From positions 8,804,001 through 8,868,000 of the forward strand of contig CM022677.1 of assembly GCA_012295275.1 (NCBI GenBank): DNA of 64,000 nucleotides, in the 5' to 3' direction. A program made the translations under genes and the position numbers. Below the pieces are notes generated by a model, which had not been told where the DNA came from, did no database searches, and worked only from the letters and a program-made list of their open reading frames with translations. Below, piece after piece: positions 1,957 to 60,500 of the stretch; the first letter of the stretch is position 1, and every line of letters begins with the position of its first letter. This DNA is from Chrysomallon squamiferum (lineage: Eukaryota; Animalia; Mollusca).

Positions 1957-2794
1957 GGTTGTTTTAAGTTGGGTGGTTGTATTATTGTCCAAAATTAAAA
2001 TATTTTATTATGGAATGCCCCAGAAAGGAATTATCCATAATTTCAATTCTTAAGTAGACAGTGAAGTCTGGTTGTGTTTCTTATCCCTAGTTGAATCAAA
2101 TTCTGAATTAATTTATCATCACAGCATGCATCTTCTCCTTATTAATAAAAAGAAAAATAATGAAAATAACAGATTTTATTTATTCATTTATTAAAAGCAG
2201 TAATAGGACTAAAAAAGAAAAACAAATTTAAATGTATATCAGTTTTACATATATCTAATAATAATAATAATAATAATAACAGATTTATAAAAGAAACAAG
2301 AAAACTAATAGTAACAGGTACTTACTACAACAGCAACAACTACTAATAATAACAATAACAATAATAAATAAAATAAGATAAAATAATAATAATTATATGA
2401 GCAAACTGTGTCTTTATTTATGTCAAATAACAATAATAAAAAAGGAGGTCTAAATGATAATAAAATACAAAATATACAAAAAAAACAAAAAAAAAAAATA
2501 GAATCAAAATAATAAGTATATAGAATGAAATGATAATTATTTCACCTAGCAAATCTTCAAATCAACAATTTATGCTGATTTCATTTGTATTAATAAACTA
2601 CACTACTGAGGTGCTCTCGTTATCTGTGGAGTATGATCACTGGCTACACTTTAAATTACTTATTACGCCTTCACAGTTGCAAATTATAATCAGTAATGAA
2701 GTGTGTGTGTATCAGTGTATGTATGTGCAGTGTAACTGTAGCACAGTTATCAAAAAAGTAAATGCATGCGTAATCTGAAAGAACCATTCCAGTG

Positions 2795-8739: not shown

Positions 8740-21933
<13,194 letters not shown>

Positions 21934-24213
21934 TGTCTAGATTTTAGAGAAATTAATTTAACCGGAAATTTCTGCTATATAATTTGGAGCGAAATTAGTG
22001 AGTCTTTTTGTCCTTAAGTATAAAAGTTATTATTTCAAATAATATTTTCTAGATGAATTTAGTACCCACTCCACAATTCTGTTAACAGTTTGGCCCACTT
22101 ATAATAGCGAAAATTTCTCTCTGTAAGGAACTGTTTTTTATCAAGACTTGAAGTTCATTATTTTCCTATTCACAGTCACTGACGGAATTCTTTTCTATAA
22201 CAGTTAAAAATTAGACATCAGCTCGGTCACTTTTTTTGTTTTACTGATTATCTCCAATGACACTAAAAAATTATATTGGTTCTTAGGATTCGGAATTGTT
22301 TAAAAATGCCTTTCATAAGACGTTGCTTCAGTTGAAGTATTTGTAAGTAATCTCCTCTGTGCTCTGTAGAAGGTTTTCAAAACGACTTTTTTATACTGTA
22401 ATAATGATTTCTTTTGAAACAACTTAGACTCGCTTCTCAAACTTTGATTACTGAATCTTCAGGCCCAGTTAATTCAGGACAAGAAATGTAATTCTCTTTC
22501 GTTCGAGAACAGATTCTCTTTAATGATTGACTCTTCAGCTTCAGAAGTGTCTTTAGTATTACAGTCTTTGACTGATTCCTGATCACGAGAACTGTAATTA
22601 TCTTCAGTGATTTGTCTGTAGAGAACTGAACCTAAGTCTTGCAGTTAGTTCCAGACTAACGTGTCGCAGTTCAGAGTTTCGCTCTAAATGATCAGCTCAG
22701 ACTCTGCAGGTGTCTTTATAGATCCGCCTACCTCCACCACAGCAGAGAGGACCGCCACATTTTCAGTTTATCGTTCTCAATTTACTCAGCGTAAAACAAC
22801 GTCTCCCGTTGGCTACAAGGCTACGGAAGAAATCTCTCTTTACCATAAACAGACATTTGTTTTCACCTTCTTTTCTTTCTCTTAAAGCATTATTACTTTC
22901 CTTCTCAGTTATCTCCCTTTGGGTTGAAGTGAAGGAGAGTAGTTTGAAGAAAAACGTTGGCTGTGTTATTCAGGTTGTTTTTGTGTTTGACGTTTCAGTA
23001 AACGGGGCTCACACATCAATACTTGTGTTCCCTGTTTGTCAACACAGAATTGTTGAGTTTGTCAACACGAAAACGTAAACGCGAAGGCGGAACTCCCGCG
23101 CTCCGAGAAACGTAGACAGGTTGACAGGTTCGGTCAGCAAATACCGACACACGCTCGTATGCAAATTTAGTCGATTTTTAACAACAGTAAAATGCTTTCC
23201 TATAGTTTCCTGGTTTTGTTGTCTATGGAGTCTGTGGTAGATTAAATATAGATTATGGTTATAGCGAGGGACTGTTTTATGAAAATATATTGTTTTACAT
23301 TTTTGGTCCGGTTCATTATTTTTCAGATCAAACCACATGTCCGTGAATTGTCTTTCAATCATTGTATAAAAATATTAATAAGAACAACAATATGTTGTTT
23401 CTGTTTTGTTATTATTATTATTATTACTATTACTATTATTATTAGTAGTCGTATTAGTAGTAGTACTAGCAGTAGTAAATTATTGTTGTTGGTGTTGCCG
23501 TTATTGCTGTTATTATTATTATTATTACTATTATTATTACTGTTACTACTATTACTATTGTTATTATTATTACACGCACACACACACATTCTTGTTCGAC
23601 AGAGAGACAGATAGACAAACACATTATCAAGACAATCATACAAGGAATAATGAATCATAAGATTGCCAAAGAAACAAAAATAAATAATTTGTACACAGTA
23701 ATTACACTGATAATTAAAAAAATAGGAAAAGAAAAAGACAAAATGTAAATAAGTTTAAAAATTAAATAAACGTATCAACTGAATAAAAAAAAGAGAAGAG
23801 TACATTGAATAGACAATGCGGAAACATTATCTACACACAGACCAGTTTTACCAGACACACACCGAGACACAGAGACAGACAACAAATACATACAGTGACG
23901 CGAAGAACTGTATTATCAGAAATGTTGTAATTATTGATGTTATCTTGTTTGAACTATTTGGACGCTATAAATAATTGACCAAGTTGTTGAATAGTGCTCT
24001 CGTTTAACTTACCGTAGTCGCGAGATCTCGCCTTCTCGATTTATACACAGTTTTAGTATATTTATAAAATATGGAAATAGTTGTGTATATCTTTCCTGTG
24101 ATCTCTCTCTGTTAGAGTCTCGCTTTCTCTATCATCTTCTCTCCCTCTGTCATTCATTATGTAGGATTCTTCATAAATTGATTTTTAACATGAATTAGCA
24201 AAATAATTAATTA

Positions 24214-30710: not shown

Positions 30711-31427
30711 CATCACCTTTATTATTATTGTTGTTGTTGTTGTTATTATTATTATTATTATAATTATTATTTTTACTATTATTATTATTGTAATGCTAAT
30801 ATCATCATCAACATTACCATCATCATTATTATCGTCATCATCTTTTTCATTATTATTCCAGTTACACAGCTTATCTTTCGTTCTATAACACAAAGTAGTC
30901 GTTTCTACTATTAGCTTCAAAAAATTCTCTCTCGTTTTTTTCCTTTGTCTTAATTCTTAAGCGCTCTGGTGCAAACAAACAAGGATCATTTCATTTTAGG
31001 GCGTCCCACGTTAATTTCCTCAAATTTCGCATACCGATTGACAGTTGGGACAAGACAAAAAAAAATGCTCTCTGATTGCATTTAGCGCACCTCCGGTTAT
31101 CCAGTAAGGGACATTTACATATTTACTGCGGAATCACTTCCGCAATCAACGCTGAAACGAGACGGAATGAAGGGAAGGGCCGCGGTGCGCAGACTAACGT
31201 GTCGTCGTTTGAAACAAATGTCCATTGTTTAATAAGTGTTAGGTGAATTTAAGTCTTCCTTGTTTTTCTTCATTTTTTCTTTTTCTTATTACGCTGACAT
31301 ACACAGACAGACAGACACACACACACACACACAAACAAAATGCACTCAAAATGAAGTAAGTTATAAATCTTTCTTAATGTGTCTTTATTTCTAGTAAAAT
31401 ATTAGCAGCAACCCAACAACAATAATT

Positions 31428-31462
<35 letters not shown>

Positions 31463-31510
31463 ATAATAATAATAATAATAATAATAGTAATAATTATGAC
31501 GATGATGATG

Positions 31511-34489: not shown

Positions 34490-35830
34490 GAAACTGTGCT
34501 TTTTCCAGCGCGGCATGTTTGAAAGAAAATTAGCGAGTAACTCGGAGTAAATATTTTCCAACGGGGCTGACTTGTAGGCGATATTTTGATTAAGTCAGAA
34601 TCTGTGAGTAGTCTTTTGTGTTAATACTACGTTGGTTAATAAATATAAAAATATTTCATGTTTGTGTTAGTTTTGTAGTATTAATGAAAACCTGAAGTCG
34701 AAGGAAAAGATGAAAATCCAAGAGAAAAATAGAAATTTTTTTTTTATATATTTTTTTTATTCTTTGGAAATGTTTAATTTTAAGTGTTTTATGAAATATG
34801 CTAAGAATTGTGCACCTTATTATTTTTCCTTTATTATTTTTAAAATTCTTTTATCATTATCGTCATCATCATCATCATGATTTTTATTAAATTTATGATG
34901 ATGATCATCATCATCTGATATGATTATCGCTTTCGTCATCATCATTAACCTGTCGTGTTTCTTAATATTACCATTATCATTATCATCATCATTAACGTTG
35001 TCGTCTATTTTCTCTAACATCATCATCATCATCTTTATTAACACTACAGTTTTTATTAACTTTATCATCATCAGCATCATTTTATGCTTTCATTTTTATT
35101 ATCTTTATCATTACCATCATCATCATTATTATCATCATTAATCTTGACGACTTTACAAACATAATCATCATTTACGCCGTCGTCTTTTTAACTTTATCAT
35201 CATCATCATCCGATTTTATTGTCACTCTCATTATCGATACGAAAACTGCAGCTTTCGTCATGTCGGCATCATCATCATCAGCAGCAGCATCAGCATGAAG
35301 AAGAAAGACATTCATATATTCATATTCTTTCATTCTGAAAACGAACAGAAACAGCGGACATTTTCTAAATGTAAATTTAAAATAAAAATAATAATGGCTT
35401 CCAATTTCGACACAAATTAGAAATTCAGTATTTTGTTTTCTTGCTGTCTACAAAATGTTTGCTTTAATTTTTACCTTCCACAACACACAGGCGTTGTCGT
35501 TTGACTGTTTGCATCATTTAACCTTGGCAGAACAATGGCTAAAACCAGGCAAGTGTTATTTTTAGATTAGCACGTGTTTGTCGTCTGTTAGGTAACCTCG
35601 GCGACAACGGAGAATAACTAGTGAACGTGACAACATAGAAAATTAATTTACACGATATATTTTTGTGTTTGAATAGCTGCAATGCTGATCTTAATAAAAT
35701 ATTAAAAATTTCTCTTGCACTTAATGATATACAAATATCGATAATGAATGAATGGATGAATGGATAAATATGTAACCATTTTGCGTTGGCTAGGTGCATT
35801 TTAATATTAGATGTTACCCGGTTATCGCCC

Positions 35831-35909
<79 letters not shown>

Positions 35910-35917
35910 GTGGAGAG

Positions 35918-36035
<118 letters not shown>

Positions 36036-36139
36036 ATGCGAATATTCGACAGATACAGAAACAGAGGTGTGTTTGTGGCTGTGTATGTGTATGTATGTGT
36101 GTATATACATACATACATACATACATAAAATTATATAGT

Positions 36140-36237
<98 letters not shown>

Positions 36238-36630
36238 AAATATGAGTAAAAGTGATTAAGAACCCACCACCGTACATACACTCAGAGTACATTACAGATG
36301 TTTTATAATTTCCTAATAATAAAATATAACAAATATCAAATTTGCTTTTACTACTTCTGACAAGTTCAGCGGTAATTTACTAGCGACACCTAGTGTGATA
36401 TGGGTCATAATTAACACGTACTGGTGTTGACATCAAAAATTGGATATTATCTCCCTTATTAAACTCTCTACGCTACGACAGATCGACCGAATTTCGCATT
36501 AAATGTCAACCTTTATTACTGCTGTCGACGTTATCATCTAATGATATCTGTTTTCATACGTTTATCTCTGTGAAATAAAACATAAAAATTAATTTGATAT
36601 CATTATTGATGCGTTTTTCTGGGTCGTTTA

Positions 36631-36680
36631 TTGCGAAACATTCGCTATATAACTAAGGATGTTTTCTGTGATCGTCACTT
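36631..36680 (+). promoter_or_regulatory. Core promoter of antistasin copy A (TATA + Inr)
   Basis: TATATAA at 36646-36652 lies 31 bp before the A of an Inr-like TCACTT (36675-36680), and that A is 47 nt upstream of the ATG. A C/EBP-like TTGCGAAA is at 36631. Confidence 0.6.
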
Positions 36681-36723
36681 CGGTTTTCTCCATTTCCGAC
36701 AATTATCGAACACTCACGAAAAG

Positions 36724-37939
36724 ATGCAAGTCTTTTTTGTTATCGCTGTCTGTCTGGTTATTTCTGCGGAAGGTAAGTTTTGTTTTTCTCATTTATTTAT
36801 TTGTTTATTTATAGAGAATAATATTATTAGTTTAAAAGAGAGGGTAATAATGGTTTTAAAAAACGAATAATAATAATAGATTTAACCTATTCCTTGAGAG
36901 TAGTACATCAATTATTAACATCCTTGTCGCCTACAAAATCTATACAGCAAAACAATTTATATATTTATTGTTTTTTTTAATTGTAAACTGTTCTCAAAAC
37001 GGTCTTTTGAGATCTAAAGCTGCAATTAACCTGTATCAAAATAATTGTGAACAATAAATAAAAAATGATTTATCTTGCAAGTAAATTGATATTTGATATA
37101 TGTATCGTATACACATGAAATTTGCAAACGTGGCCTTACCGTCCCAAGTTAACCACAGAATATGGCTGGCTCCGCCGAGAATTCGCATTTTATTGAACAA
37201 ACGAAAGGCAAAGACTAGTGTTTCATTCTCTGTTCAAATTTATCTTTTATTTAGGAAAATAAACATTTTTACACCAACTTGTAACAAAACAAAACAAAGT
37301 TACAAAACAGAGAGAACGAGTCTTGCTCGATCTCGTACTTATAACAGACTGCTGTTGCTATTGCTACATATGTACCGTCTATTACTACTGCTATATTACT
37401 TCTACTAATAAAACTGCTACTACTACTAGTACTGCGACTACTATTTGCTCTCTTATTACTACACTTTGTTTATTAGTGCTACTACTAGTACTAGTACTAG
37501 TGTTACTATAACCACTGCCGCTACTGTTACATCATCTATCCGAAAATGCTCTGAATACAACTACAACTACTAATATATTACTACTACTACTACTATTACT
37601 ACTACAACTACAACTACTACTACTACTAACTACTGCTACTATTACTACTGCCGCTACAACTATACAACTGCTGCTACTATTGCAGTACTACTGCTACTGC
37701 TACTACTACTACGGCTGCTACTACAACACTACTACTACTGCTACTGCCGCTACTACTACTGCTCATACTACTACTACTACAATTCCTTCTAGCAATCTAT
37801 ATTTCATAATTTTGTTGTTCTGTTTTTAACAGGCGGCTTGATCGAAAGCAAAAGAGGTAAGTAAAAAAGTTTCTATAAAAAAAGTTTCTATAGTATTAGA
37901 TTTAATAATAATAATAAAAATATTAAAAATATTAATAAT

Positions 37940-37986
<47 letters not shown>

Positions 37987-38253
37987 TAAGGAAATGGCAA
38001 AAGATTACAATATTATTATTATGAGTTTAACAATATAGCCAGTTTGGTTTTTTTTTTTTTTTAAAACGAGTTTAATAAAATTATTTCAAGTATATATATA
38101 TATATATATATGAATAAAATTTGTGTTTCTAGAATGTGGCCCAGTTTGCGCCATGTACTGTCAATATGGAATGAAAATTGATGAAAACGGATGTCCTATC
38201 TGTCAGTGCAACACAAAAGAAGGTAAATAAATAAATAAACACCAACAAAAACG

Positions 38254-38310
<57 letters not shown>

Positions 38311-38981
38311 TTTATTTATTCTACAGAAGCTGAGTCCAAGAAAAGGAATGTACCAGGTAAGAGAAACACACGCAGTCACACACACACACACACTCATACA
38401 CAGACACGCACAACATTCAGAGAAAAAACAAAACACACAAACAGCCTCATACGCACATACTGCACAGAGCCGCAAAAGGACAAAATCACGCATGCACGCA
38501 CAAACAGCAAGTTTATAAAATACATACAGACACTTACAGAGAGACATAAAATACATATATACACAAATTCACACACAAACACACACACACACACACACAC
38601 ACAAACTCATATAGACATATACACAAACGTATGCAGACAAGCACATATTACTACTACTACTACTACTACTACTATTACTACTACAACTAGTACATTACAG
38701 ATACTTCTGTATTCAGAAATATACTTCACATGTAGAAACAGTTTTGTGTGTTTTATTCAGACTGTGGACCTGTGTGTATGATGTACTGCCAGTACGGGAT
38801 GAAGCTCAATGATGAAGGATGTCCAGTCTGTGAATGTAACCCCGCACCACGTAACTAAAATCTTTCGTCTGGATAGAATTATTTTCATTACGAAAACGTA
38901 CATTATAATAAAAACAACAGCAATAAGATAACTACTACTATTACTACTACTACTACTACAAATAATAATAATAATAATATT

Positions 38982-39039
<58 letters not shown>

Positions 39040-40248
39040 GCTACAGTTAATTATACATATATATTTATATATATTCTACAGAAGCAACCGAAAGCAGAAG
39101 TGCACCAGGTAAGAATGAAAAATACAATCATTACTATATTTATAAATTCATTATTAACTACATACCTACATAACCTTCCATTATTAACTACATACCTCTC
39201 TATCCATCTCTCTATCTATCTATGCATCTACCTAGTTGTTGTTTTTGTTGTTACTAGCATGTGGACCGGTGTGTTACATGTATTGCCAGTACGGAAATAA
39301 ACTTGATGAGAATGGGTGTCCTCTCTGTCAGTGCAACACGCAGGAAGGTAAATAAATATACAAATAAATAATTAAATAAATCAATAAATCAATAAATAAA
39401 TATACAAATAAATAAATAAATAAATAAATATACAAATAAATAAATAAATAAATATACAAATCAATAAATAAACAAATAATAAATAAATATATCAATAAAA
39501 TAAATAAATAAGTAAATATATAAACAAACAAACAAATAAATTAATTAATTAATTAAACTGTAGTAATAATAAAATTCTAATGTGACTGATGACCTCCATG
39601 ATGATGATGGTGATGGCGATGATAACAAAGCTTTTAATAATTAATTATAATATATCTTCATCAAAAACGTTTGGGTATCTTTTGTATATCCAAATACCCA
39701 TGTACACCATGTGTTTATAATATTTTGTTTTTAACATATTTTTGTCTATTACAGAAGTTGAGGCCAGCAAGAGAGATGCAGGTAAGAAAGTGAAATTACA
39801 TACAGACCCAGCACGTACAGACAGACAGATAAATATACTTCTCACTACTGCTACTGCTACTAATACAATTAGTTATTATTGTTATTATTGTTTGTTGTTG
39901 CTGTTGTCTCTCTGTTTTTTGTTCTTATTATTGTTATTATTGTTGTTGTTATTGTTGTTATTGTTATTACTGTTGTCATAATAGTGTGTGGGCCGGTGTG
40001 TAACATGTATTGTGAGTACGGGATGAAACTCGATCAAGATGGATGCCCCCTTTGTGAATGTAACGCCGCTCCAACACGTAACTAAATTCTTGTCAATTAT
40101 TTTGATTATGAATCTTGTGTAATGAATGTACTAATAATCAGATTATAATAAACTAATATTAATAAATAAAATAATAATTAAATAAATATAAAAAGGAAAG
40201 AATAAAAGGCATAAAGAAGTAAGCCAGCAACTTATTTACCCTAAGCGT

Positions 40249-40301
<53 letters not shown>

Positions 40302-42635
40302 GACACACACACACACACACACACACAACAAATAGTATTATTATTACTAGTGTGTGGACCTGTGTTATCTCGTTTTCGTTTAAAGAAGATCATTATATTT
40401 CATCTGAATTATTTCAAAACATTTAATTTTCTTTTTGCAGAGGTGAAAAGGCAAGCCAAAGGTAAGCTACATTATTTTTAATTTAAAACAGAAATCGATT
40501 TAAATGAAATCACTGCCGTCGTTCAGCTGACGTTGATGTTTACTTTTGTTTGTTTCTTTTTTTTTAATTGTTTATTTACCATGTTGTCATTATTATTATA
40601 ATTATTAGTATTAGTATTAGTATTATTATTGTTATTATTATTATTGTTATTGTTATTATTGTTATTATTATTGTTATTATTGTTATTGTTTATTATTATT
40701 GTTGTTGTTAATATTATTATTATTGTTATTATTATTATTAGTAGTAGTAGTAGTTATTATTATTATTATTGTTGTTGTTGTTATTGTTATTGTTATTGTT
40801 ATTGTTATTACTAGTGTGTGGACCTGTGTGTATGATGTACTGCCAGTACGGGATGAAGCTCAACGATGAAGGATGTCCAGTCTGTGAATGTAACCCCGCA
40901 CCAGGTAAAACCTTTATAATGTTTCCTTTCAGTACAACAGCAATAAACAAACATGAATGCATTATGATCTTTCGTTTTCAAACATCAAACAAACAAGCAA
41001 TTAAAACTGTGGATAAATAAATAAATAAATAACCAAAGAAAGAATTATATTAAAATATTTAATTTTCTTTTTTCAGGGATGAAAAGAGATTCGACAGGTA
41101 ATTTCATTTAATTACTTTTAAACTAATGCTTTGAAACAGAACATCGCATCAGAGGTTCTGGGGTCAAATCCCGTCGAGACCATGTTAAAGATTGTTTATA
41201 ATTTTGATATGTATAACAGACAAATACAAAAATAAATACATATATATATATTAAAAAAGTTTATAAGGTTTTTTTTAAATAACTGTTGCTTGCAAATAAA
41301 TTAAAATAAAGTGATAAAACTTGTGTTTGTTGAGTGTGCCCTGTTGCTTTAGATAACGAAAAGAACACCATTTGTCATATCGCACGCCGCTATGTATACT
41401 GCACGTGCAAACGAGGTGCCTTAGTGCTGTTGCAGAAGCGCGCGCAATACGGATGTATTGAAATGACATTCTGATGCACTGAACCAACATCATCCAGAAA
41501 CAATAGGAAGAATTTATTCTGTTATAAAGTGTCGCGTCCAAGCTTAAAAGAAAATCAACGACATGAAACAATGGGACGACTTTACGCCGGCCAACGCGTT
41601 CACGACGTCGCTCAGTACTTTCGTGACAATATCACGTCTCCGACTTCGTGTACATCGAACTGGACAAGTGCGAGATCGACCACGTTCTGGTAGAACACGA
41701 TTAACTCCTCCAAGGGAAGATGACGTCATCACTACGACACAGGTTCGAAAGTGCGCCACGTTCAGCCCGTACACTGCAGCAAACCACAGGACTAGAATTC
41801 ACGCTCAAACTGTCCGTAACCGTCTCCACGCTGCTGGGTTACAAACACGTCATCCTGTTGTAGTGTTCCCCTGACAGCGCGTCACGTTCAGAACGTCTGA
41901 GATGGGCCAGAATACACCAGGTTTTGTGTTCACTTTGCGGACGATAGGTGTAATGTATGGAGGCGACGGGGTGAACGATATGATGCAGACAACGTCATTG
42001 AGCATCACCGATATGACGGTGGCAGCGTCATGGTCTGGGCCGGCATTCATGGCTGAGGTAACTCAGAAAACATGACTGTTCAACGTTACTGCGACGAGAT
42101 CATTACACAGTGGTCATTCCATTCCTGCAGCAGCATCCTGGCTTTCTGCTTCAACATGACAACTGGAGACCACAACACACCGCTAGACTAACCTCTAATT
42201 TTCTTGAGCGGAACACATCCAAGTGTTGAACTGGCCACCAATGTCCCCTGACTTGTCCCCAGTTGAGTACGCATGGCACCTAGTGGGCCGTTGGGTACGC
42301 AACATTCATCCTCATATCCTTAATACGACCTACAAATGGTTGAACGGGAATGGAACGCAGTTACTGAGATTACTGTTCATTATAAGCATGAGTCGACGAT
42401 GTCTGCTGTTATCATTGCCGCTATTATTATTGAGTTCTATCACCAGTTTGGTAGATGCACCCCCAGTTTTATCAGTTACATTAAAGAAACTAGTTTATAC
42501 CGTGACAACGTGTTACTGCATTCTGAAATGTACAAATAATTCAACATCCAATCGAATATATTAACTGTTAACATTACTACTAACTTTTTTGTCCACTTTA
42601 GTTTTAACCGCAAGACAAAAAACACCTCCCTCCCT

Positions 42636-42725
<90 letters not shown>

Positions 42726-42762
42726 ATCATGTGTGTTTTCTGACTGTCTGCAAGACAAAAAC

Positions 42763-42846
<84 letters not shown>

Positions 42847-43239
42847 TTGTGTGTCTATCTGACTGTCTGCCTCTATATGGCTGAACCTCTCTTTCTCTCT
42901 TTCTGTCTATCTAAGAAATTACAGATATTATTTTTCGTTTAAACCATTTATTTATTTATTTACATATTTATTTATTTATTTGTTTGTTTATTTATATATT
43001 TTGTGTTTGTTTGTTTGTGTATTTACATATTTATTATTTATTTATTTATTTGTATATTTTATTTATTAGAATGTGGTCCACTCTGTCGTAATTACTGTCC
43101 CTGGGGTCGGGTGAAGGATGAGAATGGGTGTGACACCTGTGAATGTTATCCTAAAAGAGGTAAACACTTTTTTTTTTAATCATTACACATACCTTATTAC
43201 ATATATCCATACACACACATCCACAAATATATGTGCTCT

Positions 43240-43276
<37 letters not shown>

Positions 43277-43289
43277 TATATGTGCTCTT

Positions 43290-43334
<45 letters not shown>

Positions 43335-43433
43335 TATAAACACACTCTCTGTTATTATTATTATTATCCCTATTACAGTTCCTATTATCAGTATTATGAT
43401 TGTTGTTGTTATTATTATTATTACCATTATTAC

Positions 43434-43493
<60 letters not shown>

Positions 43494-43597
43494 GATTGTT
43501 ATTATTGTTATTTACAGAAGTGTGTGTTGAGTGTCGGATGCTGTGTCCAAACGGATTCAAGTACGAAGAAGGTTGTGCAGTCTGCGAATGTGCCTGA
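36724..43597 (+). CDS. Secreted antistasin-like (I15-type) serine protease inhibitor polyprotein, copy A: 273 aa, 7 domains separated by basic processing-like sites
   Basis: 14 GT-AG exons, all joined in phase 1: 36724-36772, 37833-37856, 38133-38222, 38327-38356, 38761-38850, 39082-39108, 39258-39347, 39755-39781, 39985-40077, 40441-40461, 40815-40904, 41077-41097, 43070-43159, 43518-43597 (822 nt). Protein: MQVFFVIAVCLVISAEG GLIESKR ECGPVCAMYCQYGMKIDENGCPICQCNTKE EAESKKR NVPDCGPVCMMYCQYGMKLNDEGCPVCECNPAP QATESR SAPACGPVCYMYCQYGNKLDENGCPLCQCNTQE EVEASKR DAVCGPVCNMYCEYGMKLDQDGCPLCECNAAPT QVKR QAKVCGPVCMMYCQYGMKLNDEGCPVCECNPAP GMKR DSTECGPLCRNYCPWGRVKDENGCDTCECYP KR EVCVECRMLCPNGFKYEEGCAVCECA*. 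The C-x3-C-x3-C-xxG-xxx-DxxGC-xx-C-x-C pattern is the antistasin domain. Confidence 0.92.
40351..40365 (+). pseudogene. Stub of a deleted antistasin-domain exon (VCGPV)
   Basis: TTATTACTAG|TGTGTGGACCTGTGT is identical to the acceptor and first 15 nt of exon 11, then stops abruptly. It is also present in copy B at ~52148-52162. Confidence 0.7.
41240..42600 (+). mobile_element. Decayed Tc1/mariner (Tc1-like) transposon in intron 12 of copy A
   Basis: HTH region ISRLRLRVHRTGQVRDRPRSGRTRLT...TVRNRLHAAGL, then frameshifted pieces GGSVMVWAGI, LLQHDNWRP and LNWPPMSPDLSPVEYAW. Multiple frameshifts; ends approximate. Confidence 0.85.
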
Positions 43598-43824
43598 TGT
43601 AGGAACACGTCTGATTTGTTTATCATTTACGTCATATTTTAATAATAGTAAATATTCACTTATATTATAAAACATTTATAGGTCCTTACATAATCATCAT
43701 AATAATAATAAAACAACAGTTACCGTTCGGATCTATTCTTTAAGCTGCAGTCCAAGGGAGACAACTATGTTTAATTTGATCTGATGTTAAAATACGAAAT
43801 AAATTAACAATAAACAACAAGAAC

Positions 43825-43892
<68 letters not shown>

Positions 43893-44128
43893 CAAAAATA
43901 AAAATAATAAAAAAAAAAAAAAAAAAAAAATAATATAAAATAAATAAATAAATATTTAAAAAAAAATAATTTAAATTAAAAATAATAAAATGAATCGGTA
44001 CAAACAATGCAAATGAATGTGCATATCTGATTATCAGGATACAGCGTATCGTCAATATAATGTATTCAAAAATGTATTTTTTTGTATGTGTGTATGTGTG
44101 TGTGTGTTTTAATATTATTTATCTACAG

Positions 44129-44230
44129 AAATTGTTTCTCTGTTTTGTTCTAGGAGAGAGAAATGACATAATTATGATGAAAGCACTTAGTTATAATGGA
44201 GGCCACTGAATAAATACTTCTATTTCATCT
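44129..44230 (+). other. Candidate terminal 3' UTR exon / polyadenylation signal of copy A (mirrored at ~49365-49465 in copy B)
   Basis: Acceptor-like CTACAG (44128) or TTCTAG (44153) followed by AATAAA at 44209-44214. Not confirmed. Confidence 0.35.
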
Positions 44231-44299
44231 GAGTGTTCTTCTTTTATTACTTGCTGTAAAAATACCATTATCCGTTTTGAGAATTTCTCTCTAAATATT

Positions 44300-44830
44300 T
44301 CATTACGGTAATGATGGCGATATTAATAAGAGATAATAATAATATATTTTAATACGGATGCTCACGGTCAGAAAATAAGAATAACAGCGAATAAAAAACG
44401 AAAAGGAATAAAGAGGAGTAAACCAATAACGTTATGAACAACGTCGGTACGACGGCAACGACGGCCACATTAACAGAAATTACAATACTATATTTTAATA
44501 TGTGATACACCAGCTCAGAAAGTTCGAGGAATAATTAATAACAAGCACTAAACATTAATGAGAAGTACTCCAACAAGCTAGGAACAACGCCATTACGACG
44601 GCAACGATGGTGATATTAATGGAGATAGTAATAATACATTTTAGTATTGGATTTGAACACTAAAGAGGTATGAATAACAGTTAAAAAAACAAACAAAAAA
44701 CAATAATGATAAGTACACCTAAAACATTAGCAACAATCCCTTTACGATGGAAACTATGGCAACATTAATAAAGATAATAATAATATATTTTGATGTAGGA
44801 TGCGCCCGATCAGAAAGTCTGAGGAATAGC
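44300..44830. repeat. Diverged ~146-bp tandem repeat, 4 units (mirrored at ~48760-49290)
   Basis: Units start near 44301, 44447, 44591 and 44741 and share TACGACGGCAACGATGG...ATTAAT...ATATTTT...TCAGAAAG. Confidence 0.6.
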
Positions 44831-46267
44831 CTTTATAAGATAAAACTGAGATTAGTAAAATTTGTATTAGTAGTACGTCTTCTTACTTTATAACCTTCTC
44901 ACAAAATGTTCTGCCGATTATTTAACAAAGCAAAACGGTTTATCTTTCAGTTGCTAGCAGCAGAGCTACGTGTGTTTGTTTATTCGTGATAATGATGCCT
45001 AACAGCACCAGCAAAGTGAATGTGGCAGTTACGTAATATTTTATTACGTTTATTATAGAATTCAGAGATAGAGAAGGGGATATTATTTTTCTTTAAAAAT
45101 GAGAAATATAAATAAATGTGCTTTTTTAAAATGTAAAAATACACAGAAAAATGTTTCAAGGCGTCAAAAAATGGGGATATTTTATAATAAAAGATATGAA
45201 CGTGATATTTTGATAGGATGAATAATTCTTATTCTACAGATAATTTAATATAAATATTAACATCATCACCGAGCACCAGTATCTTGCAGTTAAAAAATTT
45301 GCTATAGGTTTTTTTTGTTATCTTATAAGTGGATTTATATCAGCATGGTCCAGTATGCTCGGTAGTTATAAAAATTTGTTCGGTATCGTTCGTCATTTTC
45401 CGGCTGCGAATGCAGTCGCATGTAATGATATGTAAAGTTATTATGATGATACAGCTGAATGACAAAATTAGTATATTTTTATATAGTTTTCGCCTCAGAA
45501 AATGTTTATAAAGGGTTGTCATTTATTTATTTATTTATTTATTGAAACTACTGTCGTAATCGAGACCTGTCTTCAACTCGCACCAGACCGTTTTACTCTT
45601 GAACGATGAACGATAAAAGAAAGAATAACGTTGTATAACAATAAATATTCTCTTATTAATAATATTATTATTTATCTACAAAACAGACATCACAGGTTGA
45701 AATCCTACTTTCAGGAACTAGGGCCATGGTGAAAGATTCTACATTTACTGAAAAAAAAATCTGGACACACAGATAGAAACGTGAATGCATATGTTTAAAT
45801 AAAATACATATTTTGATGGATGTAAATAACTATTTTAAAATGTTAATTAAATTAAGAAATGAATAAACTATAATTATGTATTTTGAAGAAAAAAATTACT
45901 AGTGTAATAATATCCCTTTATTATTATTTGATACTCACATGCGCAGTTTATTTAGATCTACGTCAGCGGATTTAAATCGGGTTTAAATAAAACTTCCAAC
46001 GGTTTTACGTCAGTTGACATGTGAATGCCAATATCAGTAGGTCACTTTTTAATTTTTAATTTTTTTAAATTTTTTTTTTAAAATAATTTTATTGTTAGCG
46101 ATTTATTTTTTTAAATTGATTATAATCAATAATAGTAGTTAACTGTATATTTAATTAGTACTAATAAAATGTTATTATAAATATAAATAAAACACGAACA
46201 GTATGCATAAACCTCGGTTTCATGTTCTACTAATATGCCTTGGCGGACACATTCAAAGTCCACTGAT

Positions 46268-47674
46268 CAGTGGCGGCCACCAACCTTTGCACCTTTCGCT
46301 CAAGGTTGATCAGTTGCCCATGAGACGTCAGTGTGATAGGTTGTGTGTGTGGTGTTGTTCCGCACTGGTCGTGTGTGCGCGTGCATAATGCCGATTGCCG
46401 AATTAACTTCGCTGTGTTTTAAATTATTGTCATTCTTAAACACTTATTAGTAAAGAGATGTAGCTAACTAGGTGTATTTAGTTAAGAAATTATGCTAGTT
46501 AGAACAGATTTTGCAAATCTGTCGTCTCGGCAAATCTGTTCAGTTAACAGTGTTTACTATTTACTTGCACACTCAATTACAGATGAATTTAAACTAAATT
46601 AGCTTGTGACTAATCATAACTAGTTTAACACTGCCTGTTGTTTACTGTTGTTGGTTAGAGTACGCGCGTGTTAATTGCTTATGAATACCCCTTCACAATG
46701 GATAAATTTGTTAAAAGGAAGGATGTTAGTGACGGGTGTGAGGTTGAAACAGAACATACAATGAAGCCCACAAAATCCAGCACAAAAAAGGCAAAAGTTC
46801 ACCATAATAGACGGTATTGTGATGATTATTTGAAGTTTGGATTTTCTTGGTCAGGAGATGTTGCTCAACCATGTCCATTATGTATAGTTTGTGGTGAAAC
46901 AATGGCCAATGAATCCATGGTACCAAATAAATTACAAAGACATTTCACGACTAAACATTCCGACCTACAAGATAAAGATTTTAGTTATTTTCAAAGACTG
47001 TTACAACAGCAATCAAAGCAACGCAATGTTTTTCAGAAAACAATGACCGTGTCTGAACGGGCTCAACTCGCTTCATTTGAGGTAGCTGAAATAATAGCAA
47101 TGAAATCCAAATCTCACACTCTTGCTGAGTCAGTTATCCTTCCCGCTTGTAAAAAGATGGTCCTTCTAATATTGGGTTTAAATTATGCGAAGAAGAAGAA
47201 TTGGCTACCATTTCAAGTGACCGCAGTCTTAAAATAAAGCATTCTGAGGTAGATATCGACACATTTTGGATTTCAATACAAAAGGAATTTCCCGCATTAG
47301 CTGAAAAAGCCCTGTTAGTTCTTTTACAATTCTCTACTTCTTATTTGTGTGAATTGGGCTTTTCAACCTTAAATAATATAAAAAATAAAAAGAGAGAAAG
47401 ACTACGTTCCATTGAAGAAGAAATGAGAGTTTGCTTATCGCACATACGACCAAATATTCAAGAAGTCATAAGACAACACCAGGCACAAGTTTCACACTAG
47501 GTAAGTGGCAATTCTGGGACACTAACATAATAAACTGTATCAGACAAGTCCATATATGTATTTTTTAATTTAGTTTACGATTTCAACATAATAATATTTA
47601 AAATTATGACTGTGTCGCGACAGTTTCATGCGCTCGTAGGTATGTCGAGCGTAAAAAAAGGTTGAGAAACGCTG
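46268..47674 (+). mobile_element. Internally deleted hAT transposon (Buster/Charlie, SCAND3/ZBED5-like)
   Basis: ATG at 46698: MDKFVKRK...RRYCDDYLKFGF...PLCIVCGETMANESMVPNKLQRHFTTKH (BED finger). It is joined at ~47160 to the C-terminal dimerization region FWISIQKEFPALAEKALLVLLQFSTSYLCELGFS...QAQVSH. Most of the catalytic core is missing. Ends are CAGTGG...CAACCTT and AAGGTTGAGAAACGCTG; no clear 8-bp TSD. Confidence 0.88.
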
Positions 47675-48576: not shown

Positions 48577-48676
<100 letters not shown>

Positions 48677-49711
48677 TTTGTGAGAAGGTTATAAAGTAAG
48701 AAGACGTACTACTAACAAAAATATTTAAAATTTTACTAATCTCAGTTTTATCTTATAAAGGCTATTCCTCAGACTTTCTGATCGGGCGCATCCTACATCA
48801 AAATATATTATTATTATATTTATTAATGTTGCCATAGTTTCCATCGTAAAGGGATTGTTGCTAATGTTTTAGGTGTACTTATCATTATTGTTTTTTGTTT
48901 GTTTTTTTAACTGTTATTCATACCTCTTTAGTGTTCAAATCCAATACTAAAATGTATTATTACTATCTCCATTAATATCACCATCGTTGCCGTCGTAATG
49001 GCGTTGTTCCTAGCTTGTTGGAGTACTTCTCATTAATGTTTAGTGCTTGTTATTAATTATTCCTCGAACTTTCTGAGCTGGTGTATCACATATTAAAATA
49101 TATTACTGTAATTTCTGTTAATGTGGCCGTCGTTGCCGTCGTACCGACGTTGTTCATAACGTTATTGGTTTACTCCTCTTTATTCCTTTTCGTTTTTTAT
49201 TCGCTGTTATTCTTATTTTCTGACCGTGAGCATCCGTATTAAAATATATTATTATTATCTCTTATTAATATCGCCATCATTACCGTAATGAAATATTTAG
49301 AGAGAAATTCTCAAAACGGATAATGGTATTTTTACAGCAAGTAATAAAAGAAGAACACTCAGATGAAATAGAAGTATTTATTCAGTGGCCTCCATTATAA
49401 CTAAGTGCTTTCATCATAATTATGTCATTTCTCTCTCCTAGAACAAAACAGAGAAACAATTTCTGTAGATAAATAATATTAAAACACACACACACATACA
49501 CACATACAAAAAAATACAAATTTTGAATACATTATATTGACGATACGCTGTATCCTGATAATCAGATATGCACATTCATTTGCATTGTTTGTACCGATTC
49601 ATTTTATTATTTTTAATTTAAATTATTTTTTTAAATATTTATTTATTTATTTATTTATTTTATATTATTTTTTTTTATTTTATTTTTACTTTTATTATTT
49701 TTTTTTTTTTG

Positions 49712-49746
<35 letters not shown>

Positions 49747-49973
49747 GTTCTTGTTGTTTATTGTTAATTTATTTCGTATTTTAACATCAGATCAAATTAA
49801 ACATAGTTGTCTCCCTTGGACTGCAGCTTAAAGAATAGATCCGAACGGTAACTATTGTCTTATTATTATTATGATGATTATGTAAGGACCTATAAATGTT
49901 TTATAATATAAGTGAATATTTACTATTATTAAAATATGACGTAAATGATAAACAAATCAGACGTGTTCCTACA

Positions 49974-55911
<5,938 letters not shown>

Positions 55912-55954
55912 CTTTTCGTGAGTGTTCGATAATTGTCGGAAATGGAGAAAACCG

Positions 55955-56004
55955 AAGTGACGATCACAGAAAACATCCTTAGTTATATAGCGAATGTTTC
56001 GCAA
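55955..56004 (-). promoter_or_regulatory. Core promoter of antistasin copy B (TATA + Inr)
   Basis: Mirror of the copy A promoter; TATATAA at 55989-55983. Confidence 0.6.
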
Positions 56005-56503
56005 TAAACGACTCAGAAAAACGCATCAATAATGATATCAAATTAATTTTTATGTTTTATTTCACAGAGATAAACGTATGAAAACAGATATCATTAGATG
56101 ATAACGTCGACAGCAGTAATAAAGGTTGACATTTAATGCGAAATTCGGTCGATCTGTCGTAGCGTAGAGAGTTTAATAAGGGAGATAATATCCAATTTTT
56201 GATGTCACCACCAGTACGTGTTAATTATGAGCCATATCACACTAGGTGTCGCTAGTAAATTACCGCTGAACTTGTCAGAAGTAGTAAAAGCAAATTTGAT
56301 ATTTGTTATATTTTATTATTAGGAAATTATAAAACATCTGTAATGTACTCTGAGTGTATGTACGGTGGTGGGTTCTTAATCACTTTTACTCATATTTGCT
56401 CTCTCTCTCTCACAAACACACCTCTGTTTCTCTGTCGAATATTCGCATTTTCTCTCTCTCTCTCTTTATACTCACTTTCACTCTCTATCTGCTCTTTTTG
56501 ACC

Positions 56504-56573
<70 letters not shown>

Positions 56574-56609
56574 CGTTCTCGCTCATTATTTATCTATCTC
56601 TTTCGTTCG

Positions 56610-56692
<83 letters not shown>

Positions 56693-57330
56693 GGGCGATA
56701 ACCGGGGAACCTCGATATAACATCTAATATTAAAATGCACCTAGCCAATGCAAAATGGTTACATATTTATCCATTCATCCATTCATTCATTATCGATATT
56801 TGTATATCATTAAGTGCAAGAGAAATTTTTTATATTTTATTAAGATCAGTATTGCAGCTATTCAAACACAAAAATATATCGTGTAAATTAATTTTCTATG
56901 TTGTCACGTTCACTAGTTATTCTCCGTTGTCGCCGAGGTTACCTAACAGACGACAAACACGTGCTAATCTAAAAATAACACTTGCCTGGTTTTAGCCATT
57001 GTTCTGCCAAGGTTAAATGATGCAAACAGTCAAACGACAACGCCTGTGTGTTGTGGAAGGTAAAAATTAAAGCAAACATTTTGTAGACAGCAAGAAAACA
57101 AAATACTGAATTTCTAATTTGTGTCGAATATGGAAGCCATTATTATTTTTATTTTAAATTTACATTTAGAAAATGTCCGCTGTTTCTGTTCGTTTTCAGA
57201 ATGAACGAATATGAATATATGAATATAACTGTCTTTCTTCTTCATGCTGATGCTGCTGCTGCTGATGATGATGCCGACATGACGAAAGCTGCAGTATTCG
57301 TAACGATAATGAGAGTAGTAGTAGTAGTAT

Positions 57331-57362
<32 letters not shown>

Positions 57363-57507
57363 AATTATTGTTGTTAGGTTGCTACTAATATTTTACTAGA
57401 AGTAAAGACACATTAAGAAAGATTTATAACTTACTTCGTTTTGCGTGCATTTTGTTTGTGTGTGTGTGTGTGTGTGTCTGTCTGTCTGTGTATGTCAGCG
57501 TAATAAG

Positions 57508-60500
57508 TGTGATTTTGTTGTTATCTGTTTTTTTTGTTGAAAAGGAGGCACGTCGTTTTCGAAAGAGAAATCTTTATGCCCCATTTCAACGCCCAATCGT
57601 TTATGTTGTTTAGGTCTTTTTGTATTTGTTTCTGTATTGCTGCGGTCGATCTGCCTGCACGCTGTGTTTATTGGTTCGGTTGGTGGATTTTTGGCGTTGT
57701 CTTGTTGGTCGAGTGCTGTGACAATGTCGTTGATGTAGATGTTGATGAGTGTTGGCGAGATCACGGATCCTTGTGGGATGCCGTTTTCGATTGTCATTTT
57801 CTCGGAGGTTTGACCGTTTACTTTGACTGCTATGGTTCTGTTGTTGATGAAGTCTTTAATGAAGTTGAACATGTTGCCTTTGATGTTGTTGTTGATTAAT
57901 TTGACGAGCAGTCCTTCCCTCCAAACCATGTCGAATGCTTTTTCAATGTCTAGGAACACTGCGATGACTTTTTTGGATTTCCTAAAAGATTGATTAACTG
58001 TTGTTTGCAGACAGGTGATCTGGTTGTTTGTGCTGTGTTTCTTGTGAAGCCGCTTTGTTATTTACTGATTAAATTGTTGTTGTTTAGATGCTGGTTCAGG
58101 TGTGTGTTGATCCTCGTTTCCAGTGTTTTGCCAATGTGTGACGTCAGCGTGATCGGTCTGTAGCTGTTGGGTAGTGAGTGATCCTTGTGTGGTTTGGGCA
58201 AGCTGAAACATTCGGCGTGTTTCCAGTGTGTTGGAATCTTTCCAGTGGTCCAAATTGTGTTGCAGAGATCGAGTATGATGAGTAGTGGGAAGTTCGAATT
58301 GCTGCTGGACTTGGCGAAAGTTTGGCTAAGTAGGTCCGCTTTTTGCTTCTCGGTGAATGCGATGCTGTTTTTGCTGAGAGTGTTGATTCTGTTTTTTTTT
58401 GCCTTGGATGTTTTTCACTTTGGCCCACATGTCTTTGACTGATGTTTTGTGGTCGATGTTGTTGCAAAAGAGTTCCTAGTGTTCTTGTTTTGCACTGAGA
58501 ATTAGGTTGGAAACTTCTTTTTTTGCTATTTTGTATTTTTCGTGTGTGGAGAGATTTCTGACTTTTTTGTATTGTCTTCTGAATTTGTTTCTCTCTTTGC
58601 ATTTCTTTTCTATGCGTTCCGTCCACCAGGGAGTGGATATTTTGCCGGTGCATTTTCTGGTTTTGGGTATGAATCTGTTTGCAATGGAGTGTATCGTGTT
58701 GGTGAGTGATGTGCAGTAGGTGTCGATGTCGTTGGGGTTCTTTGTGGTGATGTTTCTGCATGCTTTGTAGAAGCCTTCCCAGTCCGCTTTGTTGAAGCTC
58801 CATTTGGATGTGAAATTGGATCTGTCCGAGAAAGTGTTCTTGCTGTTGTAGTTGGTGAGTATTTGGTGATGGTCGCTGTTTAGCTCATCGAGCACTTGCC
58901 ATTCGCAGAGCGCTGCGATGTCCTTACTTTGTGAATGTTAGATCAATGGCGGTTTGGTCACCACTGATGTCGCTGGTGTATGTGAATGTTCTGTCGTTCA
59001 AACAGACCAGCTGGTTTTGCTCTAGGAAATTTTCGAGGACGATTCCAGGACTGTCGTCTGTCGAGCCACCCCATAATGTGTTGTGACAGTTGAAATCGCC
59101 CACTATAATGAGCTTGTTGTTTGTTGTCATCATTTTGTTTAAGTCGTGGGTTTGCATGGTGTGTAGTGCAGGAGTGGGTGGGCTGTATATGTTAATTATG
59201 TCAATATTTTGATTGTTGTTGTATATTGTGATGCTTAGTATTTCTATGTTGGCGTGGACTTTGGCTTGGTTCAGCTTGGTGTGTGGAATGTCTTGTTTGA
59301 TGAGTTTCATGATGCCTCCCTGGGTGCTGTTGAATCTGTTGACGTAATGACTTTGATTCCCGGGGACCTTAAAGCTTTTTGAGGTTTTGTTGTTTTTGTT
59401 GTAGTGACCTAGCCATGTTTCTTGTATATGTGTTTTGGGTGGAGGCCAGGAAGTGTACGAGTTTGTCTCCGTGGTCTGCTGAGTGGAGGTGTTTAGCTGA
59501 AGAGTGGAGAGGTCTGTGTTATTGTGTGCTTGTTGTGAAGAGTGGAGAGGTCTGTGTTATTGTGTGCTTGTTGTGAAGAGTGGAGAGGTCTGTGTTATTG
59601 TGTTCTTGTTGTGAAGAGTGGAGAGGTCTGTGTTATTGTGTGTTTGTTGTGAAGAGTGGAGAGGTCTGTGTTATTGTGTGCTTGTGAAGAATGGAGAGGT
59701 CTGTGTTATTGTGTGTTTGTTGTGAAGAATGGAGAGGTCTGTGTTATTGTGTGTTTGTTGTGAAGAATGGAGAGGTCTGTGTTATTGTGTGTTTGTTGTG
59801 AAGAATGGAGAGGTCTGTGTTATTGTGTGTTTGTTGTGAAGAATGGAGAGGTCTGTGTTATTGTGTTCTTGTTGTGAAGAATGGAGAGGTCTGTGTTATT
59901 GTGTTCTTGTTGTGAAGAATGGAGAGGTCTGTGTTATTGTGTTCTTGTTGTGAAGAATGGAGAGGTCTGTGTTATTGTGTTCTTGTTGTGAAGAATGGAG
60001 AGGTCTGTGTTATTGTGTTCTTGTTGTGAAGTCTGTGAGAGATTGTGTGCTTGTTGTTGAGGTGTGTTATTGTGAAGAATGGAGAGGTCTGTGTTATTGT
60101 GTTCTTGTTGTGAAGAATGGAGAGGTCTGTGTTATTGTGTTCTTGTTTGAAGAATGGAGAGGTCTGTGTTAGTGTGTTCTTGTTGTGAAGAATGGAGAGG
60201 TCTGTGTTATTGTGTTCTTGTTGTTGAAGAATGGAGAGGTCTGTGTTATTGTTTGTTCTTGTTGTGAAGAATGGAGAGGTCTGTGTTATTGTGTTCTTGT
60301 TGTGAAGAATGGAGAGGTCTGTGTTATTGTGTTCTTGTTGTGAAGAGTGGAGAGGTCTGTGTTATTGTGTGCTTGTTGTGGAGAGGTCTGTGTTATTGTG
60401 TTCTTGTTGTGAAGAATGGAGAGGTCTGTGTTATTGTGTTCTTGTTGTGAAGAGTGGAGAGGTCTGTGTTATTGTGTTCTTGTTGTGAAGAATGGAGAGG

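Follow-up and report, generated by a model that had tools for sequence, protein, structure and literature searches.

The 64,000-nucleotide (nt) window analysed here, a stretch of the mollusc Chrysomallon squamiferum genome (assembly GCA_012295275.1, contig CM022677.1, positions 8,804,001 to 8,868,000 of the forward strand), carries a 14-exon antistasin gene at 36724-43597 on the plus strand and an inverted, near-identical copy of it. Seven exons of the gene each encode one six-cysteine domain (D1 to D7), and six of these are preceded by a micro-exon of 21-30 nt that encodes a short spacer with a basic site. An earlier sequence-only reading of this DNA had proposed a prohormone-style precursor that yields seven small cysteine-rich peptides. 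Our analysis favours a related interpretation, in which the gene probably makes a secreted precursor that a prohormone convertase likely cuts into six peptides, five with a single domain and one double-headed, whose predicted targets are different serine proteases.

Gene structure and micro-exons

Reading 35.5-45 kb and joining the exons reproduced the earlier gene model, and its coordinates, 14 exons, phase-1 introns and symmetric internal exons were all borne out (Table 1). All 13 introns are GT-AG and in phase 1, and each of the 12 internal exons has a length divisible by 3. The joined frame encodes 273 amino acids (aa; 30.07 kDa) with 43 cysteines, six in each of the seven domains and one in the signal region, leaving none in the spacers. 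Hydropathy peaks at 3.6 in residues 1-14 and there is no hydrophobic segment further on, as for secreted proteins; the first 17 residues or so, including the first codon of exon 2, are the predicted signal peptide. The core promoter in Table 1 follows the general consensus for TATA and initiator-like elements. Past the stop codon, 43598-44230 may hold an intron of the 3' untranslated region (GT two bases past the stop, acceptor at ~44154, then AATAAA at 44209), and an earlier AATAAA stands at 43707.

Table 1 Features of the antistasin gene and its second copy. Scores are those of the micro-exon test described in the text.
Feature	Position	Strand	Basis
Predicted core promoter: TATA box (36646) and initiator-like element ~30 nt 3' of it	36646..36680	+	Initiator read by eye
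Exon 1, coding part, 49 nt: start codon and predicted signal peptide	36724..36772	+	Hydropathy
Micro-exon 2, 24 nt: short propeptide with KR end	37833..37856	+	Score 19.9
Domain D1 exon, 90 nt, P1 = Ala	38133..38222	+	Pfam, P1 register
Micro-exon 4, 30 nt: spacer with KKR	38327..38356	+	Score 15.7
Domain D2 exon, 90 nt, P1 = Met	38761..38850	+	Pfam, P1 register
Micro-exon 6, 27 nt: spacer, single Arg only (SR), predicted to be cut poorly or not at all	39082..39108	+	Score 13.7
Domain D3 exon, 90 nt, P1 = Tyr	39258..39347	+	Pfam, P1 register
Micro-exon 8, 27 nt: spacer with KR	39755..39781	+	Score 16.6
Domain D4 exon, 93 nt, P1 = Asn	39985..40077	+	Pfam, P1 register
Relic of domain-exon acceptor and first codons, intron 9	40336..40370	+	29/30 nt match to D5 acceptor region
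Micro-exon 10, 21 nt: spacer with KR then Gln	40441..40461	+	Score 17.4
Domain D5 exon, 90 nt, P1 = Met	40815..40904	+	Pfam, P1 register
Micro-exon 12, 21 nt: spacer with KR	41077..41097	+	Score 14.7
Degenerate Tc1/mariner-like insertion, intron 12, copy A only	41234..42333	.	DDE_3 and transposase helix-turn-helix, below gathering score
Domain D6 exon, 90 nt, P1 = Arg, own KR at end	43070..43159	+	Pfam, P1 register, structure model
Domain D7 exon, 80 nt to stop, P1 = Arg	43518..43597	+	Pfam
Copy B, inverted near-identical duplicate	49974..55911	-	0.67% divergence outside exons and repeats

The micro-exons were tested against all open, symmetric phase-1 AG..GT segments of 12-60 nt in every gap between anchored exons. 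With a splice-site table that follows the general metazoan consensus and is not trained on data, the micro-exon of the model was the top-scoring candidate in 6/6 gaps (13.7-19.9 against 2.1-10.9 for the runner-up), and in three gaps the runner-up was merely a NAGNAG variant of it shifted by 3 nt. A background of 83 kb on both strands gave three candidates scoring at least 11, none of them with KR. The micro-exons of the sequence-only reading thus stand out beyond chance. In the intron between exons 13 and 14 there is no plausible micro-exon (best score 0.1). The six micro-exons align with one another, flanks included, as paralogues, which indicates descent from a duplicated unit of spacer exon and domain exon.

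NAGNAG tandem acceptors occur at micro-exons 4, 6 and 8 (38327, 39082 and 39755), where one residue could be dropped with the basic site unaffected. RNA contigs from three runs labelled with the same organism and one unlabelled run, placed on 39040-39348 and 40811-42625 (2124/7701 nt), covered no exon there and are uninformative on expression and splicing; the transposon insert is all that they cover, and it explains their word share of 0.02-0.03.

Antistasin domains and reactive sites

A Pfam search, which the sequence-only reading had suggested, placed 7/7 domain exons above the gathering score of Antistasin (PF02822; 26.1-36.1 bits against 21.2). No other Pfam family, pacifastin included, matched any of the seven at E values up to 1. 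Each unit has six cysteines and two glycines in 25-26 aa and aligns to subdomain 2 of antistasin, hirustasin, guamerin, bdellastasin and gigastasin in the PDB; the four-cysteine subdomain 1 of the complete leech-type domain (10 cysteines) is absent from all units. The best of five models of the isolated D6 had a predicted local distance difference test (pLDDT) score of 85.8 (range 55-86) and a predicted template modelling (pTM) score of 0.40. A Foldseek search with it returned antistasin-family structures in 7/7 rows, none of them significant (E 0.73-4.8).

In the alignment to antistasin 30-55, Arg34 falls directly after the second cysteine, in a loop Cys-P1-x-x-Cys; Arg34 is the factor Xa scissile residue (PMC7277884). 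From D1 to D7 the P1 residues are A, M, Y, N, M, R and R. By the specificity rules used for inhibitor classes (PMC7277884), Ala would suit elastase-like, Met and Tyr chymotrypsin-like and Arg trypsin-like targets, the target of Asn being unclear.

Comparison of the D1-D5 repeats over 25 codons gave a synonymous difference (pS) of 0.79 against a non-synonymous difference (pN) of 0.125, which indicates purifying selection and a live gene. At P1 the pN was 0.74, with four residues among five repeats, making it the most variable of the 25 positions. Conserved repeats with diverse P1 residues point to a broad array of predicted serine-protease inhibitors that is both maintained and diversifying.

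Basic sites and predicted products

The spacers ESKR, ESKKR, ESR, ASKR, VKR and MKR are all present, as is the KR that closes exon 13, also noted in the sequence-only reading. Its claim of a basic site on every micro-exon holds, and that of a KR pair holds for 5/6, exon 6 (ESR) having a single Arg with no helper basic residue. Counted by site, there are six KR pairs, one ending the propeptide and the others in 5/6 inter-domain linkers, and there are no dibasic pairs inside domains. The D2-D3 spacer looks like S-K-R minus its Lys codon.

Convertases cut monobasic sites when helper basic residues stand upstream, and the D2-D3 site, with T, Q and A at P4, P6 and P8, is a poor one by this rule. 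Six products are therefore more likely than the seven of the earlier reading: five single-domain peptides of 2.9-3.8 kDa and one double-header of 8.3 kDa. Furin requires Arg at P4 (R-X-X-R). That motif is absent throughout, P4 at the seven sites being E, S, T, A, Q, G and Y, which makes furin an unlikely enzyme here and processing of PC1/PC2 type more plausible. The predicted products are D1 (34 aa, 3742 Da oxidised), D2-D3 (77 aa, 8344 Da), D4 (35 aa, 3736 Da), D5 (35 aa, 3765 Da), D6 (31 aa, 3509 Da) and D7 (26 aa, 2880 Da). Their first residues would be E, N, D, Q, D and E in that order, D5 starting with Gln, and all are acidic (net -1 to -7).

KR linkers in relatives

A profile of the seven domain exons found 1021 representatives, of which the best 150 were listed, and a word search added 24 + 1. 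These remote searches, like the structure models, used single exons or their alignment, and the ranking favours proteins with many repeats. Linkers were counted with a strict six-cysteine regular expression that misses some domains, over 169 proteins for KR frequency and 129 with two or more cysteine-free linkers. Among the matches listed, the nearest named single domains are from scallop, octopus and nemertean. A word search with a single exon gave no candidate, and the Atlas gave no usable match. For Octopus bimaculoides A0A0L8G2C5 the prediction is a precursor with one domain, in which a single six-cysteine unit follows a signal and a short pro-part; this suggests that a lone unit exists as a gene product.

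KR occurs in 13/372 of the relatives' linkers of 5-20 aa and in 19/568 of those up to 40 aa. Its enrichment here (5/6 against 13/372; Fisher 8e-7) is overstated, since the linkers of this gene are paralogous. Only 7/129 relatives carry KR in at least half of their linkers: three isoforms of Lineus longissimus LOC135483470, P0067, Hydra vulgaris XP_065667397.1, and two with KR in 1/2. In the Lineus gene (XP_064620494-6), S-K-(K)-R stands ahead of every domain and the isoforms have alternative first domains. P0067 (JGI/IMG, 339 aa, partial) has S-K-R on both flanks of acidic spacers of 20-23 aa, a textbook prohormone layout, and the antistasin-like Hydra protein has KR in 2/3 linkers. Ser precedes the linker site in 11/12 cases in the Lineus/P0067 group against 0/17 elsewhere, counts in which isoforms and repeats are not independent, and in 3/6 KR sites of the window gene. 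The sequence-only reading had raised the conservation of KR linkers as a check; they proved rare, yet the S-K-(K)-R pattern turns up again in P0067 and the Lineus gene. Domain identity does not support orthology of the latter to the window gene. In the Lineus isoforms X1/X2 (P0125/P0173), the first module is either a six-cysteine antistasin unit or a four-cysteine variant.

A second copy and turnover of the array

Copies A (the gene described above) and B form an inverted tail-to-tail duplication of ~9 kb (35224-44906 on the plus strand against 48676-57316 on the minus strand, and also 31285-31474 against 57316-57507). A unique 3.8-kb spacer with a hAT remnant (46659-47497) separates them, and ~3.7 kb upstream of copy A is missing from copy B. 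In copy B, 13 exons are intact with GT-AG; of exon 11 there is a remnant at ~51642-51720 from which the acceptor, the codon of the first Cys and 9 nt within the exon are missing, and the exon is presumably left out of the transcript. Joined without exon 11, copy B keeps its frame and encodes 243 aa with six domains and six KR sites. Nor does it contain the Tc1-like insert found in copy A.

The DNA run contains forms of both copies, at depths of 35-43 and 52 with 82-104 in the common parts, and includes the joint 41233-42334 that represents the form without the Tc1/mariner-like insert. The copies may be either recent paralogues or two haplotypes misjoined side by side. Copy B was rejected as a test of conservation, being too recent (0.81% divergence in exons against 0.67% outside). 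A degenerate 147-nt tandem repeat lies 3' of both copies (44305-44828 and 48800-49286).

Within copy A, D2 and D5 differ at 1/75 core nt. The identity (98% between 38763-38854 and 40817-40908) is limited to the exons, the flanking introns differing, which suggests exon-limited gene conversion. Together with the exon loss in copy B and the relic in intron 9, this indicates continuing turnover of the array through gain, loss and conversion of domains.

Other features of the window

A multi-exon gene at ~8743-21936 on the minus strand matches Pfam LPMO_10 (lytic polysaccharide mono-oxygenase; 34.3 bits on exon 10870-11208). It has a signal-like start at 21936, and its last frame is basic, of low complexity and 458 aa long, with no Pfam match. 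Fragments of long interspersed nuclear element (LINE) type (RVT_1, endonuclease) and of Gypsy type (RNase H, integrase) lie on the minus strand at 57498-59556 and 61874-63998, with a tandem array at ~59.5-60.7 kb between them. An open frame of 668 codons at 1-2004 (minus strand) runs past the window end and has no Pfam match.

Interpretation

The interpretation that fits these results best, and that we hold with moderate confidence, is the cleaved precursor. Its predicted signal peptide would bring it into secretion, an enzyme of PC1/PC2 type in the regulated secretory pathway would cut after KR, and a carboxypeptidase would then trim the basic ends. Each unit would fold as an antistasin subdomain 2, with disulfides 1-4, 2-5 and 3-6, and offer its P1 residue to a protease, with a likely role in guarding a secretion (mucus, gut or haemolymph) from microbial or predator proteases. 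The gene would have grown by copying a phase-1 unit of spacer micro-exon and domain exon, and gain or loss of a domain in such units would leave the frame and the cut sites intact, as in copy B. Prohormone-style cutting, as proposed in the sequence-only reading, thus gains from the KR enrichment, the KR-punctuated relatives and the pacifastin precedent; its count of seven products does not carry over, and both splicing and cleavage are predictions.

Several observations weigh against this interpretation. All six solved antistasin-family inhibitors found (48-137 aa) carry the extra four-cysteine subdomain 1, we found no literature report of protease inhibition by a bare six-cysteine unit, PMC12482156 offers nothing further on activity, and the role of non-leech antistasin-like proteins is called unclear (PMC7851590). 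Two sites crowd cysteines: the first has Cys as its P2' residue, and the D6 site lies three residues past Cys6. Cutting at both may be hindered. The purine-rich Lys and Arg codons may owe part of their conservation to a role as splicing enhancers. No orthologue was found among the matches listed, where the best identity per domain was 16-20/25, and a true orthologue could escape such searches. Moreover, 122/129 multi-linker relatives have no regular KR sites, and the KR-bearing ones are no closer to the window gene than others (14-17/25 identical), so recurrence of the KR design may be convergent.

Those 122 relatives, as uncut tandem arrays, also speak for a precursor that stays intact, a seven-headed multivalent inhibitor of the Hydra antistasin or leech bplin type with spacers that serve as flexible linkers and a KR that is either inherited with the duplicated unit or a by-product of splicing enhancers. 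We consider this unlikely. The six micro-exons are paralogous and may owe their KR to a single ancestor, decay to SR is seen at one site, and crayfish pacifastin remains uncut (PMC2689174). However, the spacers have drifted freely in length (21-30 nt) and sequence with KR retained in 5/6, KR also closes the propeptide before D1, and it arose in exon 13 without a micro-exon. In micro-exon 4 of copy B, moreover, the change in the Arg codon is silent and the next residue is altered, and ScrepYard regards dibasic linkers as cleaved (PMC9885460). It seems to us quite improbable that the precursor is cut and its peptides are not inhibitors, serving instead as toxin-like, antimicrobial, metal-binding or structural (adhesive, cocoon) products, given that variation is centred on the canonical P1 with residues that match the three main serine-protease classes. 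The acidity of all products is a further point against it, since typical antimicrobial peptides are not acidic. The missing subdomain 1 and the Asn, unusual as P1, would suit such roles, for which there are precedents in antistasin-like units of a leech cocoon protein (PMC7851590) and in antistasin-like proteins of nemertean proboscis and mucus, putative toxins to one of which a 3,543 m/z peptide was assigned (PMC9132205, PMC10674772, PMC11768458).

The sequence-only reading had also pointed out that skipping a micro-exon would fuse neighbouring peptides. Alternative splicing of the micro-exons could in that case switch the output from separate domains to fused inhibitors with several heads. 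Donor scores argue otherwise: those of micro-exons (8.9-12.4) exceed those of domain exons (4.7-7.7), with acceptors equal or better, which favours constitutive inclusion. The sole variation observed is the loss of a domain exon in copy B, and no spacer exon is lost. The symmetric phase-1 internal exons would keep any skip in frame, but they are expected from tandem exon duplication alone. A skip would leave linkers of ~5 residues, common in relatives, and the annotated Lineus isoforms with alternative first domains and the NAGNAG acceptors at three micro-exons also fit a switch. We regard regulated skipping in this gene as unlikely and give the switch as a whole very little credence. Little more can be said for a bolder version of the cleaved precursor, in which the gene joins the Lineus gene and P0067 in an undescribed, widespread class of S-K-(K)-R antistasin prohormones, the smallest natural antistasin inhibitors, and micro-exon splicing here sets single against multi-headed products; this we find improbable.

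If the precursor is cut as predicted, the one-gene inhibitor cocktail of pacifastin style would extend to the antistasin family, and a bare subdomain 2 of 26-35 residues and three disulfides would be a working inhibitor, a very small scaffold. The P1 variants that this scaffold has in nature would suit elastase-, chymotrypsin- and trypsin-like enzymes. The gene bears on the role of antistasin-like proteins in animals that do not feed on blood. Annotation that drops exons of 21-30 nt would lose the cut sites, and such genes would be misfiled as uncleaved repeat proteins.

Comparison with known systems

The window gene most likely works like a pacifastin precursor, yet is no pacifastin. Insect pacifastin precursors have a signal peptide, tandem three-disulfide inhibitor domains and dibasic sites, the last in nearly 90% of the multi-domain precursors (PMC2689174, PMC5691223), and cleavage into single domains has been shown in locusts (PMC2689174). 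Domain-skipping splice variants are described, and Aedes aapp-1, with seven domains, has one double-header at a missing site (PMC2689174, PMC5691223). The locust PPs, aapp-1 and Tribolium tcpp-1 thus share tandem six-cysteine units, dibasic sites, variable P1 residues and exon duplication with the window gene. They differ in an unrelated fold and disulfide pattern and in domains (one or several) that share exons, with no cleavage-site micro-exons described in the accessible text.

Within the antistasin family, tandem subdomain-2 repeats of 25-26 aa and six cysteines are shared with Hydra antistasin (PMC7851590, PMC9464118) and with leech bplins, in which subdomain 2 is one exon able to splice to itself, in 1-16 repeats (PMC12131632). 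Dibasic processing and spacer micro-exons go unmentioned in the available parts of the papers on these proteins (PMC7851590, PMC12131632). Leech antistasin, hirustasin, guamerin, bdellastasin and gigastasin (PDB 1skz, 1hia, 1bx7, 3bg4, 1c9p, 5ubm) have the same subdomain-2 cysteine pattern and C-P1-x-x-C loop. In contrast to the window gene, they consist of one or two domains of 10 cysteines, with the four-cysteine subdomain 1 that precedes each subdomain 2 in the complete leech-type domain (PMC12131632). Closest in layout are Lineus LOC135483470 and P0067, with six-cysteine units each after S-K-(K)-R; they differ in linkers of ~25-60 aa, with acidic double-KR spacers in P0067, and are known as database predictions only.

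Octocoral venoms use modular processed precursors with proteomic support (PMC11896702). The Kunitz-Kazal PI-GRTX-Esi6/7, colipases and SCRiP doubles resemble the window gene in cysteine-rich domains between propeptidase sites and in exon loss, but have other folds and a nematocyst venom context that is not evidenced here (PMC11896702). ScrepYard excluded 2153 repeat proteins whose linkers are dibasic, taking these as cleavage sites (PMC9885460). The window gene falls outside its SCREP rule (no dibasic linker site), for which only the D2-D3 pair would qualify. In the literature available, which leaves subscription journals mostly uncovered, we found no convertase-processed antistasin polyprotein and no cleavage sites on dedicated micro-exons. 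High novelty, which the sequence-only reading had left to a search, is unsupported, given that dibasic inhibitor precursors are known in pacifastins and one-exon subdomain-2 repeats in leech bplins. The general logic of the inhibitor precursor is already known from pacifastins, and what appears new is its probable use in the antistasin family and the predicted cleavage sites borne on micro-exons.

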